Virus record (IMG/VR): IMGVR_UViG_638341086_000012
Location: 1-18,720 of that record
Reading direction: 5' to 3' (one strand)
DNA: 18,720 bases
Source of the DNA: a virus
Lineage: Duplodnaviria > Heunggongvirae > Uroviricota > Caudoviricetes
Part shown: positions 1 through 17,900 of the stretch, piece after piece
How positions within the stretch are numbered: position 1 is the stretch's first letter
How the letters are laid out: the number at the start of each line of letters is the position of its first letter
Program-made: the position numbers and the translations under genes
Notes under the pieces: generated by a model
The model's database searches: none
What the model saw: only the letters and a program-made list of their open reading frames with translations
Told to the model about the DNA's origin: nothing

Positions 1-141
1 TTACTGCTTACACTGTAAGAACGCCGCAAACTCCGCTCCCCAGAAGCTCATCCGTATTTCACACAGCGAACCGTGCAACATCCAGATGATGAGGATTGCC
101 GTCACGCAGAACGTGATGGCCGTAAGCGATTTTTGCGACAT
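1..141 (-). CDS. hok: Hok/Gef-family type I toxin (small membrane peptide), 46 aa, not in the ORF track because it is under 60 aa
   Basis: Minus-strand ORF from ATG at 141 to TAA at 3-1 translates to MSQKSLTAITFCVTAILIIWMLHGSLCEIRMSFWGAEFAAFLQCKQ. One N-terminal hydrophobic helix plus the SLCE(I/L) and AAF(L/M)xC signature recalled from HokA/Hok/Gef. Match is from memory, not a search. Confidence 0.7.
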   Translation of the reverse strand: MSQKSLTAITFCVTAILIIWMLHGSLCEIRMSFWGAEFAAFLQCKQ

Positions 142-331
142 AGCACTTGCTCCTTTTCCGGAGAGGCGCTAACCTTTCACTTGTCAAGGTAATGCGGTTA
201 GGGCCTCGGTTAAACAGAGATGTTTTCCGGGGCCTTTCCACATCTGGCCTTCGGGTATTCCCTCCGACCATCAGCCGAAAGGCACCCGCGCGTAATCTAT
301 CGCTTTTTTGTTGCTCCGGCAATTCTGCCTG

Positions 332-592
332 TTAATCCTGAGGTAAAGGCAAACTCATCTGATTGTTTCCCCTGTGTGAAGCTGGCAGCTCATGCCACGG
401 GATACCTTCTGAAGAGTGAACGCCGGAGGCGTGTTTCGATGTGAATTTATGGAAAGCTTCCAGTGTTGAGAAGCATACACCGCATTCCAGGTTGTTACAC
501 TGGTAATACTTTTGCCGCACGGTATTTGAATCATTTTCCGGACGACTGGTACGGATGCGGGCAGATGCGCCACAAAGCGGGCAACGGAACAT
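332..592 (-). CDS. ogr: Ogr/Delta-family zinc-finger late-gene transcriptional activator
   Basis: N-terminus MFRCPLCGASARIRTSR...YYQCNNLECGVCF parallels P2 Ogr (MFHCPLCQHAAHARTSR...CQNVNC) with the same four-Cys spacing. Lies downstream of gpD on the same strand, as in P2. Confidence 0.88.
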   Translation of the reverse strand: MFRCPLCGASARIRTSRPENDSNTVRQKYYQCNNLECGVCFSTLEAFHKFTSKHASGVHSSEGIPWHELPASHRGNNQMSLPLPQD

Positions 593-786
593 AGCGACCT
601 CCCTTAACGCAGTGCTGATGTTATTCTAGGTCGTGCTGGCTATAATTCCAACTAACACTTCGTTTTAAGCGAATAGCAGATAGTCGAGTTATCATGTTAT
701 TAGCCAATAAATATACGTGGTAAAAGCTCTTTCTTCGATTTAAAATGTATCTGGATAGTAAATATCTTACGTTAAAGGAAATTGTT

Positions 787-1107
787 ATGGATTTTTTATC
801 TTCGGCGATACTTTCTGGCATAGTTTATGACATGCTTAAACATCATGTTTCGATTACTGCAACTTCAATAAAAGAAAAGTTAAAAAATTGGGTTATTGAT
901 GAGGCTGTAGCCCCTGCTTTAGCTAAAGAGCTTGAAAAACTGTCTTTGAACGATGAAATGAGTGAAATAGCAATTGAAAGAAAACTATTGGATAGTAGTG
1001 AAATTCAAAAAATACTCTCGTCTATAAAACCTCATGCAGCAACTGTCATTATTCAAAACCATAGTGGCACTGGTGATAATATTGGTGGAAATAAAATTAC
1101 GAGGTAG
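787..1107 (+). CDS. Hypothetical small protein (about 106 aa), first gene of the AT-rich cargo operon; no recognisable family
   Basis: ORF-track frame 745..1107. ATG at 787 is preferred because AAGGA at 775-779 sits 7 nt upstream; ATG at 745 has no SD. Very AT-rich relative to flanking phage genes. C-terminal motif IQNHSGTGDNIGGNKI recurs at the N-terminus of the next gene. Confidence 0.5.
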   Translation: MDFLSSAILSGIVYDMLKHHVSITATSIKEKLKNWVIDEAVAPALAKELEKLSLNDEMSEIAIERKLLDSSEIQKILSSIKPHAATVIIQNHSGTGDNIGGNKITR

Positions 1108-1112
1108 TGTCT

Positions 1113-3905
1113 ATGGATAACATTCATAGCTGCAGTTCAATTAGTCAAAATCATACCGGAACAGGCCATAATGTTGCTGGTAACTTAATTATATACAATA
1201 GTGATAATGTTGATTATGCGACTGAGTTAGCGATTGCTGTTTTAGTCGGTTGCTGGGATGAAAAAAATAATGGTGATATTGATATAATTACAAGCCTTAT
1301 TGGCGAGTCATATGACAGTTGGATTCGAAAATTAAGAATAATTGAAGGGATGCAAGATAGTCCTTTGATTCATGAGAGAGGTTCTTGGAGTTTTAAAGAT
1401 AGAATACAATCATTTCAAACGGTATCGTCAAGATTATTCGATGATCATTTGGATTTGTTTCGGACGACTGTTGTATCCGTTTTTAAAACTATCGACCCAC
1501 AATTTGAACTGGCACCTGAAGAGCGTTATGCAGCAGTAATTTATGGGAAGGTTTTACCACACAGCCGATTAATAAGGAAAGGACTATCCGAAGGGTTGGC
1601 ATTAGTTGCAACAAAGCAAGAGTTACTTACTAATTGCTCAAAATATAAAGGGCAATATTGCGCCTCAAGTGTGGTTAAAGAGGTTTTTTCGGCTTCTAGC
1701 TGGCAATTATGGGCTAGTACGCAAGATATTCAAGTTATGCTTGCGGAAAGTGCTCCTGACTGTTTTATCGACGAAGTGGAAAATGCTGCATCTCACCAAG
1801 ACAAGCCATTTGATTCACTTTTTGCACAGGAAGGTATCGGTGGTATTTCAGGTCGGAATTATATGACAGGACTGCTATGGGCTATTGAAGGATTAGCTTG
1901 GGCGCCTAACTATTTATCTCGCTCTTTAGTAATATTAGGGGAGCTGGATAGCCATGATCCTGGTGGCAATTGGGCTAACAGGCCACTTAACTCGATAATC
2001 AACATATTGTTACCATGGCTTCCTCATACTACAGCTGATATAGATAGACGTATTGCTGCTTTCAACGCATTGGCAAGGGAGTGGCCCGATACAGCATGGC
2101 GTGTTTTAGTTCAGTTGCTACCCAACAACACGCAAGTAACATCTGGCACACATATTCCAACTTTTAGAAACTTTATTCCTAACGGTTTTAATAAAAGGCC
2201 ATCGGGTGATGAGTACCGTACTCAGATTGAAATATACACTCAATTAACAATTGAATTGGCAAGTAAATCATCATTAAGACTTGTTGATTTAGTTGAAAAT
2301 ATTGGTAGATTAGCGCCATTTAAATTCGATGATGCAATTAAACTATTGTATGATTTTTCTAAAAAAACAGATAGTGCTGAATTGAAGTTAGCGGTGTGGG
2401 AAAAATGTTTAGAAGTTTATAACAAAAACAAAAGATTCTCAGGTGCTTATTGGGCAATGCAACCAGAACAAAATGAAAAAATCAAAGATGTTTCTACAGT
2501 CTTGAAGCCCGAAAATCCTATGCTTTATAGCAAGCGACTTTTTGCACAAAACAATTACTTCCTATTTGATGAAAATGGAAACTGGCGGGACCAAGAAGAA
2601 AGGTTGACAAAAGAACGAGGGCAATCAATATACGAAATATATGCTATTAATGGTATTGATGGAGTCTTAGAATTCTCTCTATCTATTGAAAGGCCTGAGT
2701 TTGTTGGTAGTAGCCTGGTCGCAGAAGATCTAGAAATTCCTTTAGATATACTGAAAAAACTTATTGTTAGTGATATTAAAAAGGAAAATTCTCTTGCTTC
2801 TGGTTATGTACAGGCTAAAAACTACAGAGAAGGAAAATCATGGGTGTTGACAGTTATTAATGACTGGAGTGCTCAAGAAAAGATTGCTTTTTTTCTTTTG
2901 TTACCGTTTAAAAAAGAAACATGGGATGCATTAAACGCTTCATTTGATGATTTTCCTTTCGAGTATTGGAAAAATACTCTTGTTAATGCATACAGCTGTG
3001 ATTCAACGGAAGAAATTTATTTTGCTATAGACTGCTTGATTAAAGTAGACCGTCCCTTGATGGCAATAGATTGTTTATCTAAAATTTTGCATATCGATAA
3101 TTCAGTTGATAGCAGTAAGGTTGTGCTTGCTCTATTGCAATCAATTAGAACCACAGAAAATATTGAGCGATTTGATATTCACTCATTTAATGAACTTGTG
3201 AATTATATTCAAAATGATAACACTGTTTCAGATGACGACTTAGTAAAGATTGAATGGGCATACCTACCTGTAATTAACAGGGGGGCTAATGATTCGTTGC
3301 ATCCTCAAGTATTAGAGAAAAAACTTGCAAGTGAACCCAGTTTTTTTTGTGAAGTCATTCAATATGCGTATCGATCAGAATTTCAAAAAGCAAGTAAAGA
3401 ACTATCTGAAAGTGAAATAAATATTGCCAAAAACTCACTCTATTTACTTGATGATTGGAAAAAGATTCCGGGTGTTGATGCTGAAGGCAAGTTTGATGTC
3501 AATGCGTTTAATAACTGGTTTGATTTTGTCCAAACAGAATGCGAAAAGTCAGGCCATTTAGATTTTGCTTATCATAGAATTGGAAGCATATTAATTTTTA
3601 GCCCTGCAAATGACGAGCATTGGATACTTCCAGAACTGGCCGAGTTTTTGAATAGACGTGAACTTGATAAAGTGCGTACTGGTTATAAGAATGCGATAAT
3701 AAATTCGCGTGGTGTCTACATTGTTGACCCAGAAGGTAAACCGGAATTGGAGTTGGCCCAACAATATCACACTAAGTCTGATGCAATGGAACTTCTAGGC
3801 TTTCATCGATTTGCCCGAATTCTTCGAGAGTTAGCTCATGAATACCAAGCGGAAGCTGAGTTGATAATAGAACAGCACAGTAAAAAAAAGATTGCTGAGA
3901 TTTAG
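1113..3905 (+). CDS. Large hypothetical protein (about 930 aa), AT-rich cargo; candidate accessory or defence protein of unknown family
   Basis: Uninterrupted 2.8-kb ORF (track 1107..3905; ATG at 1113 preceded by GAGG at 1101-1104). No Walker A, no obvious nuclease motif seen by eye. Sits between gpD and ogr, which are normally adjacent in P2, and on the opposite strand. Confidence 0.75.
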   Translation: MDNIHSCSSISQNHTGTGHNVAGNLIIYNSDNVDYATELAIAVLVGCWDEKNNGDIDIITSLIGESYDSWIRKLRIIEGMQDSPLIHERGSWSFKDRIQSFQTVSSRLFDDHLDLFRTTVVSVFKTIDPQFELAPEERYAAVIYGKVLPHSRLIRKGLSEGLALVATKQELLTNCSKYKGQYCASSVVKEVFSASSWQLWASTQDIQVMLAESAPDCFIDEVENAASHQDKPFDSLFAQEGIGGISGRNYMTGLLWAIEGLAWAPNYLSRSLVILGELDSHDPGGNWANRPLNSIINILLPWLPHTTADIDRRIAAFNALAREWPDTAWRVLVQLLPNNTQVTSGTHIPTFRNFIPNGFNKRPSGDEYRTQIEIYTQLTIELASKSSLRLVDLVENIGRLAPFKFDDAIKLLYDFSKKTDSAELKLAVWEKCLEVYNKNKRFSGAYWAMQPEQNEKIKDVSTVLKPENPMLYSKRLFAQNNYFLFDENGNWRDQEERLTKERGQSIYEIYAINGIDGVLEFSLSIERPEFVGSSLVAEDLEIPLDILKKLIVSDIKKENSLASGYVQAKNYREGKSWVLTVINDWSAQEKIAFFLLLPFKKETWDALNASFDDFPFEYWKNTLVNAYSCDSTEEIYFAIDCLIKVDRPLMAIDCLSKILHIDNSVDSSKVVLALLQSIRTTENIERFDIHSFNELVNYIQNDNTVSDDDLVKIEWAYLPVINRGANDSLHPQVLEKKLASEPSFFCEVIQYAYRSEFQKASKELSESEINIAKNSLYLLDDWKKIPGVDAEGKFDVNAFNNWFDFVQTECEKSGHLDFAYHRIGSILIFSPANDEHWILPELAEFLNRRELDKVRTGYKNAIINSRGVYIVDPEGKPELELAQQYHTKSDAMELLGFHRFARILRELAHEYQAEAELIIEQHSKKKIAEI

Positions 3906-11124: not shown

Positions 11125-11697
11125 GTGCTGTCTTACTTAATGGCAATTCACTTTGTTTTATTTGGGAAGTCTACTAATTTAAAAAACTTCTGGAAACATG
11201 AAGTAATTCGGCGAAAACGTATGGATATCTGGAGGCTTTTAAGAGAGAAAAAGCAGCGTAACCGGAATTTCCTTTTCTGGTGGCGGTTGGCTAACGAAAT
11301 GTATATTAATGGTAATAAATTACATAAGAAAGCAGCCAAAAAGTTAAACAGTAAAATAATTAACAAATTTGGTTGTGAAATAGGATTGGGAGCAAATATT
11401 GGAAAAGGGTTAACAATTCCCCATCATGCTGGAATTGTTGTTCATTTTGCTGTTGATGCGGGTGAAAATCTGGTATTACGACAGAATACTACCATTGGAC
11501 AGATAGATGGTGACATGCCTGGTTCAAGAGTGAAAATTGGTAGTAACGTTGATATCGGAGCTAATTGTTGCATCATTGGATTGTCACGTAAAATTGGGGA
11601 TAATGTAAAAATAGGTGCAATGTCTTTTATAAATAAAGATATACCATCAAACTGCACATATATAACTAAAAAGAGTGGTGTTGTATTGTATAAATAG
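11125..11697 (+). CDS. Hexapeptide-repeat (left-handed beta-helix) acyl/acetyltransferase, CysE/WcaB/LacA-like; AT-rich cargo gene
   Basis: Repeated [LIV]-G-x-x-x-x hexapeptide pattern (IGLGANIGKGLTIPHHAGIVV, KIGSNVDIGANCCIIG, KIGDNVKIGAMSFI). Strongly AT-rich versus neighbours. ORF-track frame opens at 11092; GTG 11125 is chosen for its SD. Confidence 0.75.
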   Translation: MLSYLMAIHFVLFGKSTNLKNFWKHEVIRRKRMDIWRLLREKKQRNRNFLFWWRLANEMYINGNKLHKKAAKKLNSKIINKFGCEIGLGANIGKGLTIPHHAGIVVHFAVDAGENLVLRQNTTIGQIDGDMPGSRVKIGSNVDIGANCCIIGLSRKIGDNVKIGAMSFINKDIPSNCTYITKKSGVVLYK

Positions 11698-11704
11698 AGT
11701 ACAT

Positions 11705-11745
11705 AAAGCCATCGATATTTCTGTCGATGGCTTTTTCTTTTTATT
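11705..11745 (+). terminator. Rho-independent terminator after the acetyltransferase gene; the same hairpin lies just past the stop of gene G on the other strand
   Basis: Perfect 11-bp stem AAAGCCATCGA (11705-11715) / TCGATGGCTTT (11724-11734), 8-nt loop, followed by TTTTTCTTTTTATT on the plus strand. Confidence 0.65.
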
Positions 11746-12325
11746 GTGGGGCGACTGGCCACTCAACATCCGCTGCTACTGTTGTATCAACACGATTCAA
11801 CAATACCCGATATGTCTTCCATGCAGCCAGTAACGATGCCTCTTCCTCCGTCGCAATATCCAAATCTACGGCATCCTGAAGTGGCGCAATATGCTCACTG
11901 GCTACCTGCATCAGGCTGTTTTTTGTTTCTTCTGCCTCCTGTACCCGAAACAGTTTTTCTGCTTCTGCATCTTTCACCCAGGATGTGCCGTTCCACTTCT
12001 GACACTCTCCATCCGGCGACAACCAGGTAACATTTTCCGGTAACGGACCGAGTTCAGAAATAAATAACGCGTCCCCTGATGCCACGTCATAAACAGTTTT
12101 ACCCCGATGGTCTTCAACGAGATGCCACGATGCCTCATCACTGTTGAAAACAGCCACGAAGCCAGCCGGAATATCTGGTGGTGCAATATCGGTACTGTTT
12201 GCAGGCAGACCTGTATGAGGTGGAATGTATGCATCACCTTCCCCAATAAATTCATTAGTTCCGGTCAGCAGGTTATAAATTTTTATGGTCCGTGATTGTT
12301 CACTCATTCTGAAATCCATGTTCAC
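11741..12325 (-). CDS. G: Tail fibre assembly protein / chaperone (gpG/Tfa family)
   Basis: C-terminus ...[34 protein letters not shown] is the conserved Tfa C-terminal signature as recalled; about 190 aa. GTG at 12325 or ATG at 12319. Confidence 0.85.
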
Positions 12326-12327
12326 CT

Positions 12328-13230
12328 CTACTTAATATCAGAGACAGAATATTGTTTATTGAGCGTATGGGTAGGAGTACCAATAACGATGCTACTTCCG
12401 TGGCTATGTGCGCCAGAGGTGACATTACCTACGGGATTTTCTGGATTAATCCGGTGTATATGCGAACCAGGGCGAAAACGGTTATTAGCCTGATGTTGTA
12501 TCAGTACATCATCAGCCTGATGTTCAGGGTTAATACAGATTTGCCCGGAACGAGAGCAACACGTCCGATAATCGCCGCATCCAATATATTTAGTATCCGC
12601 ATAACGGCAAACGGAATTACCCGGACAGTATGCATATGTGCCAAATACTGCCGACTGGCGAGATTGTGCGTATTCCCAGTTAATTGATTCTGTTTTTTTA
12701 TTAAAGTTATCCCATGCCTGCTTCATCTGTCGGGCAACACTTTCAAACGGCACCTGACCACATCCGGCCCCCATTGCAGGGAATACCACTGTTTTTATTT
12801 TCATGTCTGTCGTTGCGTTTTTATTGTGCTGAAAGATGGCAAGCAGAGCGGCCCAGGTTGCGTTATATACAGCGTCTGTTCCGTCAATTGTCAACGGAAC
12901 ACGCATTGTTGGCGCATGTACCAGCCAGGGGTGATGATTATGCCCCGTTTCAATGACAAATGCAGAACCTACAGGCTGTTCGCCGAGATATTCACGAAGA
13001 ATATGATTCTGAACGCGGGACTGTAACTGAGTACCGAAGAATGCGGTAATGGCGGCATCAACGCCACCATCCATCAGGCCGAAACTATTTGCCGCACTTA
13101 CCATGCAGTCAAATTCTCTGATTGTTTCAAATGGCTTTCCGACAATATTCACACTATCTGCATTTGCAAATACCTGCTTAAATGCTTCAGCCATTTCTGT
13201 TACTGGTGCAGAAAGAATGAGCGTAATCAT
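12328..13230 (-). CDS. Macro-domain (ADP-ribose-binding / hydrolase fold) protein with a Cys/His-rich C-terminal extension, inserted between H and G
   Basis: Macro-domain motif blocks seen by eye: [60 protein letters not shown]-terminal 120 aa contain CPGNSVC...[16 protein letters not shown] and His-rich [11 protein letters not shown] overlaps the H stop (ATGA at 13227-13230); GAGG SD 5 nt upstream; stop 3 nt before the G start. Confidence 0.8.

Positions 13231-16478: not shown

Positions 16479-17900
<1,422 letters not shown>

Follow-up and report, generated by a model that had tools for sequence, protein, structure and literature searches.

The first 331 nucleotides of an 18,720-nt stretch of tailed-phage DNA (IMG/VR record IMGVR_UViG_638341086_000012; the whole stretch is referred to below as the window) are best explained as an intact type I toxin-antitoxin module of the hok/sok kind, from a 46-aa Hok subfamily. 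The module is predicted to work like R1 hok/sok. It is cargo of a P88-like (P2-like) prophage, at whose ogr/att end it sits and of which an 18-kb remnant is left here. We put the probability of this joint reading at about 0.9.

The toxin gene and its prophage setting

The toxin gene lies on the minus strand at 141..1 and encodes 46 aa (MSQKSLTAITFCVTAILIIWMLHGSLCEIRMSFWGAEFAAFLQCKQ) with an N-terminal hydrophobic helix, an LCE motif, and a C-terminal Cys. Its TAA stop codon occupies window bases 3..1, and the ORF thus ends at the window edge, as the preliminary description had observed. That description had also assigned the ORF to the Hok/Gef toxins, and a profile comparison bears this out: Pfam PF01848 (HOK_GEF) is matched with 29.9 bits (E value of 4.1e-7; profile positions 5 to 42 of 42) against a gathering score of 22 bits. 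Residues M1, C12, T14, L26, C27, E28, and E37 line up with their counterparts in R1 Hok, HokC, and HokW. A 2026 catalogue (preprint 10.1101/2025.08.07.668861) lists seven residues kept in >80% of Hok peptides (M1, C16, T18, L30, C31, E32, and E41 in catalogue numbering), and all seven are present in this ORF, as are the typical size (~45 to 55 aa) and the one N-terminal hydrophobic helix. Across 37 relatives, variation at codon positions 1, 2, and 3 of the hok coding sequence is 0.116, 0.058, and 0.200, as expected of coding sequence. On these sequence grounds, we regard 141..1 (minus) as confirmed to be a real Hok/Gef-family type I toxin gene, with signals far beyond chance. Its product would be toxic through membrane depolarization, judging by homology; overexpressed Hok representatives of diverse kinds are toxic (preprint 10.1101/2025.08.07.668861). 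A predicted Shine-Dalgarno sequence (SD), AAGGAG, at 150..155 (minus) is situated 8 nt upstream of the ATG; its GGAG is kept at −12/−13 in relatives and stands opposite an anti-SD CUCC in a small hairpin of the predicted folds. We considered orthology with HokA and rejected it: NCBIfam NF007290 is the best NCBIfam match, yet it scores 34 bits against a cutoff of 89.

The first 700 window bases are 100% identical to the chromosome of Escherichia coli O39:NM F8704-2 (NZ_CP050998.1), hereafter the source genome. The gene is indeed missing from the list of ORFs that accompanied the window, as had been pointed out, but it is not unannotated: RefSeq places a "Hok/Gef family protein" (WP_000078916.1) in NZ_CP050998.1 beside an "Ogr/Delta-like zinc finger protein." The hok gene call itself is therefore already known and ordinary. 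The position of hok directly downstream of ogr, also claimed earlier, is upheld by a match to Pfam Ogr_Delta (52.4 bits) at 592..332 (minus) and by the RefSeq annotation. This neighboring gene (332..592) is context and lies outside the module, its stop codon directly adjoining hok's −35 hexamer.

Two genes that are neighbors in K-12, ihfA and btuC, lie on either side of the element in the source genome. The 18-kb insert is bounded by a direct repeat of 25 bp (GGCCGCTCTGCGGCCTTTTTTCTTT), whose sequence is that of the ihfA terminator. One copy of this att repeat is at window positions 17717 to 17741, and the left copy lies 261 to 285 nt before window base 1 (positions 19715 to 19739 of the source-genome stretch); both copies are still present though the integrase is gone. 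The hok locus ends ~140 bp inside the left repeat and is therefore part of the element. According to the RefSeq annotation, the 18-kb insert holds tail and baseplate genes only, some of them pseudogenes, with no integrase, capsid, lysis, replication, or excision genes; this gene content marks it as a prophage remnant. Further contents of the remnant were recorded in their own right. A two-gene GAPS6 antiphage cassette (named in bioRxiv 10.1101/2023.03.28.534373) occupies window positions 745 to 3905 (plus), between ogr and gpD; its GapS6a matches NCBIfam NF047935 (136 bits) and Pfam HetE-N, and its 932-aa partner has no NCBIfam match. With a GC content of 33 to 42% against 52 to 55% in the flanks, the cassette looks like inserted cargo. 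Genes for a serine acetyltransferase and a macro-domain protein are annotated among the tail fiber genes (11125 to 13230) and may be further cargo. At the Rfam gathering threshold, the remnant also contains IS009 (RF02111, 194 bits) at 11778 to 11976 (minus) and the Hfq-binding sRNA isrC (RF01387, 150 bits) at 16719 to 16841 (plus).

The locus is widespread. Among the complete genomes of E. coli (5,426), 1,552 contain a match, and at least 1,157 contain no less than 80% of the ogr-plus-hok stretch; the locus is thus carried by about one-fifth of complete E. coli genomes and is a common passenger of P2-like prophages in this species. The 331-bp region shares 95 to 98% identity with P88 and other Xuanwuvirus (P2-like) phages, whose ORF is labeled "MokW-like host killing" in RefSeq, and ~83% with 933W, Sp5, and a large number of further Stx phages. 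A protein search retrieved 67 relatives, spread over E. coli, Shigella, Salmonella, and Klebsiella; those named by their sources are called Hok/Gef family, apart from one that is called HokA. Other settings of the 46-aa subfamily are lambdoid tail fiber regions, a plasmid site close to a relaxase gene, and, in Klebsiella, the neighborhood of a Fic/Phd pair. The gene order gpD-ogr-hok-att recurs next to ihfA in Salmonella, with a Hok there that is only 61% identical. Other Salmonella P2-like prophages carry one, two, or three tandem hok loci directly 3' of ogr, spaced ~498 bp apart (505 to 645, 1003 to 1143, and 1501 to 1641 in one locus); these copies belong to the same 46-aa subfamily and differ from one another in their Sok-tail regions. 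Enrichment of hok in prophages has been reported in recent catalogues.

The predicted mRNA fold-back and Sok antisense RNA

The hok stop codon is where the window breaks off, but the locus continues past this edge, a point that the preliminary description had overlooked. The 3' parts of the module were located in the flanking source genome, with fbi and the terminator ~50 to 120 nt outside. There, a G+C-rich stem-loop immediately follows the stop codon, the fbi sequence AAGGCACCC lies 56 to 64 nt past the window edge (source-genome stretch 19937 to 19950), where it is complementary to the 5' end of the transcript (GGGUGCCUU, 287..279), and an intrinsic terminator (AAACCCGCAG...CUGCGGGUUUUCUUUUU) is found 86 to 120 nt past the edge. 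Many IMG/VR prophage contigs, ~40 or more loci, end at this same base of the hok stop codon. When a boundary is trimmed at the stop on the basis of genes, the hok 3' untranslated region (UTR) is lost, and fbi and the terminator go with it. Analysis confined to the shortened sequence would miss the regulatory fold-back, which is a practical point for the way prophage boundaries are cut.

At the other end of the gene, a hok promoter is predicted at 294..322 (minus), with a −35 hexamer TTGCCG (322..317), a 17-nt spacer, and a −10 hexamer TAGATT (299..294), from which the probable transcription start at G287 lies 7 nt downstream. A −10 of TAGATT, TAGAAT, or TAAATT is found at equal distance from GGGTGCC in the P88, 933W, Escherichia albertii, Klebsiella, and Salmonella loci. 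This promoter and the sok promoter described below each match 8 of 12 consensus positions, and both were missed by a consensus scan that needs 9 of 12; they were placed by homology and conservation instead. The mRNA leader would accordingly extend from G287 to the start codon (142..287, minus). A covariance-model search, as suggested in the preliminary description, aligned this region (287..128, minus) with the full length of Rfam RF01794 ("sok"; model positions 1 to 157) at an E value of 1e-9, yet its 48.4 bits fall below the gathering score of 59, and reference loci score 87 to 118 bits; the inner stem of the 5' domain differs from that of R1, hence the subthreshold score. The model, named "sok antitoxin (CssrC)," matches the hok-sense strand from mRNA start to ATG in hokC, hokW, and R1-like hok. 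Since the annotated sokC and sokW lie on the opposite strand, the match marks the hok mRNA leader.

The predicted mRNA folds were assessed in an alignment of 37 distinct loci of the 46-aa subfamily (<97% mutual identity). The full-length fold is 97.4% paired in this alignment, against ~40% when the partners are slid by 1 to 3 columns, and it contains 16 pairs with compensatory change, long-range ones included. The full-length mRNA of the window allele folds end to end (−160.3 kcal/mol, z score of −7.05), with 15 end-to-end pairs in the single-sequence fold. The tac element (GGGUGCCUUUCGG; 275..287, minus) pairs either with fbi in the 3' UTR or with ucb (GAAAGGCCCC; 229..238, minus), its predicted alternative partner in the 3'-processed mRNA. 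For tac/fbi, helices 1 and 2 are paired in 96.8% and 93.9% of alignment cells; helix 2 is compensatory in four of four pairs, and three consecutive pairs change from UA to CG, CG to GC, and GC to AU. The tac/ucb helix is paired in 92.4% of cells and has two pairs with compensatory change. Alignment columns 33 and 34 covary both with fbi columns 395 and 394 (UA/CG, CG/GC) and with ucb columns 76 and 75; that the same 5' columns covary with both partners is the signature of the alternative tac/ucb pairing.

Further helices of the full-length fold would close the translation start and the antisense target. The 5' arm of the start codon helix (126..140, minus) pairs with 36..22 in the coding sequence; this 3' arm (GCGGAGUUUGCGGCG; 22..36, minus) comprises the codons for AEFAA. 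The helix, which buries the start against codons 36 to 40, has 13 pairs and is paired in 99.8% of cells, with wobble-compatible changes only (e.g., UG/CG), and the columns of its 3' arm are nearly invariant in nucleotides. The target of the Sok 5' tail (179..185, minus) is predicted to pair in the full-length mRNA with the 3' UTR outside the window, a helix with compensatory AU/GC changes at two pairs and one that matches the competition of Sok with the hok 3' end, as that work (Thisted 1994) is cited in PMC1635323. The post-stop stem-loop is also among the helices supported by the alignment. Accessibility of the SD and AUG was modeled for full-length, 3'-truncated, and Sok-blocked RNA: in the window allele, 933W, and some Salmonella loci, the AUG opens on truncation and closes with Sok, a pattern that the same models did not reproduce in P88 or the plasmid copy.

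A Sok-like RNA on the plus strand within 142 to 331 had been anticipated, with its promoter left unplaced. We found a conserved candidate promoter there at 147 to 175 (plus; −35 TTGCTC at 147 to 152, 17-nt spacer, −10 TAACCT at 170 to 175) and a hairpin at 202 to 234, sited as in sokC and sokW. Among the 37 loci, the −10 reads TAACCT in 32 and TATCCT in 3, the −35 reads TTGCTC in 28 and TTTACT in 8, and the 17-nt spacer is kept in 35; the sok promoter of the R1-like locus has the same layout (TTGCGC, 17 nt, TATCCT). Transfer of the sokC coordinates by homology predicts a Sok RNA of ~60 nt at ~183 to 244 (plus; 5' end at 183 or 186, ends accurate to about ±3 nt), composed of a single-stranded 5' tail (183 to 201), the hairpin, and a short U-rich tail. 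Its position matches the annotated sokC and sokW, and it is complementary to the leader throughout. The hairpin has 14 conserved pairs, 4 of them compensatory in the 37 loci, and folding of a 64-nt Sok RNA gives −26.4 kcal/mol (z score of −4.02). A U·G pair of the hairpin, present in 35 of 37 loci, corresponds to a C·A mismatch on the hok strand, and this strand specificity indicates that it is the antisense RNA that is under selection. A 19-nt segment just upstream of the hairpin is hypervariable, which fits a recognition tail.

Relation to known hok systems and the likely role of the module

The module shares with R1 hok/sok (parB) a small membrane toxin with a C..T...LCE...E..AAF pattern; a long structured mRNA with tac/fbi end pairing, a tac/ucb alternative, and a conserved GAGG; a cis-antisense Sok of ~60 nt with a 5' tail and a hairpin bearing a U·G pair; and, overlapping the hok SD, a sok promoter with a 17-nt spacer. 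It differs in protein sequence, with ~30% identity (39% over 31 residues), and in size, with 46 aa against 52 aa in R1 Hok; further, R1 has a mok start codon and is on a plasmid, whereas the present locus is without a mok start and in a prophage. The geometry of K-12 hokC/mokC/sokC, one of the chromosomal hokA-E/sokA-E set of that strain, is likewise shared, with Sok offsets of 43 to 101 from the hok start against 44 to 105 here and the hok ATG at +150 from the transcript start against +146; mokC is present in K-12, and mok is absent here. The closest counterparts are the "MokW-like" genes of P88 and other xuanwuviruses, which belong to the same subfamily as WP_000078916.1 and occupy the same site after gpD/ogr at the att end. 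With 95 to 98% nucleotide identity over 331 nt and no or one residue of difference in the protein, they differ in nothing substantive; in the window, a GAPS6 cassette lies between ogr and gpD, and only a remnant of the prophage is left.

The "MokW-like" label in RefSeq phage records raises the identification of this locus with the published hokW-sokW, which sequence, length, and map position rule out. The hokW-mokW-sokW system of 933W and Sp5 (Takada 2021), for which toxicity and Sok antitoxin activity have been shown experimentally (PMC8621323), is also a prophage-borne hok/sok module. However, HokW has 51 aa and is 30% identical, and its locus, at 58.5 to 58.7 kb of 933W, has an annotated mokW with an ATG at −57. 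The 933W relative of the present locus (83% nucleotide identity) is instead at 45.5 to 45.8 kb, where lom and L0129 flank it, and AF125520 carries no annotation for it; the published hokW 5' sequence is absent from this relative and maps 13 kb away. The phages 933W and those of the Sp5 type carry two hok loci, and only hokW/mokW/sokW has been annotated and studied.

Sequence and comparison point to a minus-strand transcript that begins at about G287, carries hok, runs past the window edge through fbi, and ends at the terminator ~120 nt out. In the supported fold of this full-length RNA, tac pairs with fbi, and the Sok-target region and start codon are buried. On the analogy of R1, the following course of events can be envisaged. 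The stable full-length mRNA would be inert until slow trimming of its 3' end removed fbi, whereupon tac could re-pair with ucb. The refolded RNA would then be either bound by the unstable Sok and destroyed or, once Sok was no longer made, translated, and the resulting Hok would insert into the inner membrane and kill or arrest the cell. The likely outcome would be addiction to the DNA segment and/or death on the shutoff of transcription by an infecting phage. Stabilization of the remnant or abortive infection by hok/sok, as put forward in the preliminary description, is plausible, and with nothing left to release from the remnant, addiction and abortive infection are the roles that might still operate here.

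Two other views of the locus bear on this outcome. The prophage around it is degraded, with tail genes only, several pseudogenes, and no integrase, and the K-12 chromosomal hok loci are reported to be mostly inactive (preprint 10.1101/2025.08.07.668861 and work that it cites), so the locus could be a decaying, nonfunctional relic hitchhiking in the remnant. We think this improbable, given the intact state of the ORF, the two promoters, tac/fbi, ucb, the Sok hairpin, and the terminator, the identity of leader and ORF across 15 fetched loci (among them prophages of 33 to 38 kb that are apparently complete), and the compensatory changes across the subfamily, which point to continuing selection on the RNA folds. 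An intact module might instead have a phage-directed role, serving lysis and release on induction or abortive infection, and be a mere leftover in the remnant. The hokW-sokW system doubles the release of Sp5 (PMC8621323), R1 hok/sok is cited in the same work as lowering the plating of T4, and the locus is found in intact P88-like and Stx phages and here stands beside a GAPS6 defense cassette. The remnant, however, is without lysis, capsid, or excision genes and has nothing to release, and hok is not enriched near defense systems in the catalogue (preprint 10.1101/2025.08.07.668861). We consider a phage-directed role a real but tentative possibility, with the odds leaning somewhat against it.

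The leader frame

In the canonical hok/mok/sok arrangement, a leader ORF opens hok and Sok acts by blocking that ORF. The preliminary description had proposed such a mok-like coupling frame at 59..322 (minus; 87 aa, TTG start), and this proposal is not borne out by the comparison of relatives. The TTG at 322 is part of hok's −35 hexamer and precedes the putative transcript start. The sole start within the transcript that could serve the frame, TTG 187..185, is specific to this allele; in P88 and 933W, stop codons occupy its position, and the frame as a whole is closed by stops in the P88, 933W, Salmonella, and Klebsiella relatives. It appears to be open by chance in the window allele. More broadly, among 48 leader variants, 21 lack any ORF that overlaps the start of hok, and in 27 of the 37 relatives no frame offers an ATG, GTG, or TTG downstream of GAGG from which reading continues to the hok SD, the ten exceptions using four different start positions. 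Near-cognate starts (CTG, ATT, ATC, and ATA) are scattered and unconserved, the hok frame has a conserved UAG upstream at −30 or −9, and variation in the leaders of the 37 relatives is without codon periodicity, unlike that in the hok coding sequence. In the control loci hokC, hokW, and R1-like hok, by contrast, the same script finds an ATG at −57, 8 nt after GAGG.

A mok-dependent module can nonetheless be argued for in this locus, with the leader ORF translated in the 59..322 frame from TTG 187..185 or from ATG 271..269. In the window allele, no stop codon interrupts this frame between the leader and position 59, and the Sok 5' tail covers TTG 187..185. Moreover, the GAGG that is the mok SD in R1 (PMC9841398) is conserved, here at 204..207 (minus) with no start codon after it, and translation of mok is described as required in R1 (PMC9841398, PMC4147584). 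Against the scattered starts, recurrent stops, and absent codon periodicity among the relatives, we consider this arrangement unlikely. Full-text literature searches turned up nothing relevant on hok loci without mok or on hok adjoining ogr in P2-like phages, and mok was not analyzed in the Hok catalogue (10.1101/2025.08.07.668861).

On present sequence comparisons, then, the 46-aa subfamily appears to lack mok, and this is its sole departure from the family. The wider proposition is that this subfamily, found in P2-like and Stx prophages and on some Salmonella plasmids, retains the whole mRNA switch (tac/fbi, tac/ucb, GAGG, and Sok) and has no mok, with translation and repression of Hok proceeding without translational coupling; we hold the case for it to be about evenly balanced. 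Sok would then probably act through RNase III cleavage or through effects on structure or a standby site, not by blocking a leader ORF. Possible mok-less routes are RNase III cleavage triggered by Sok, release of the anti-SD, or a blocked standby site at GAGG. If the absence of mok is confirmed, the subfamily would offer a natural test case for the control of hok by Sok without a leader peptide.
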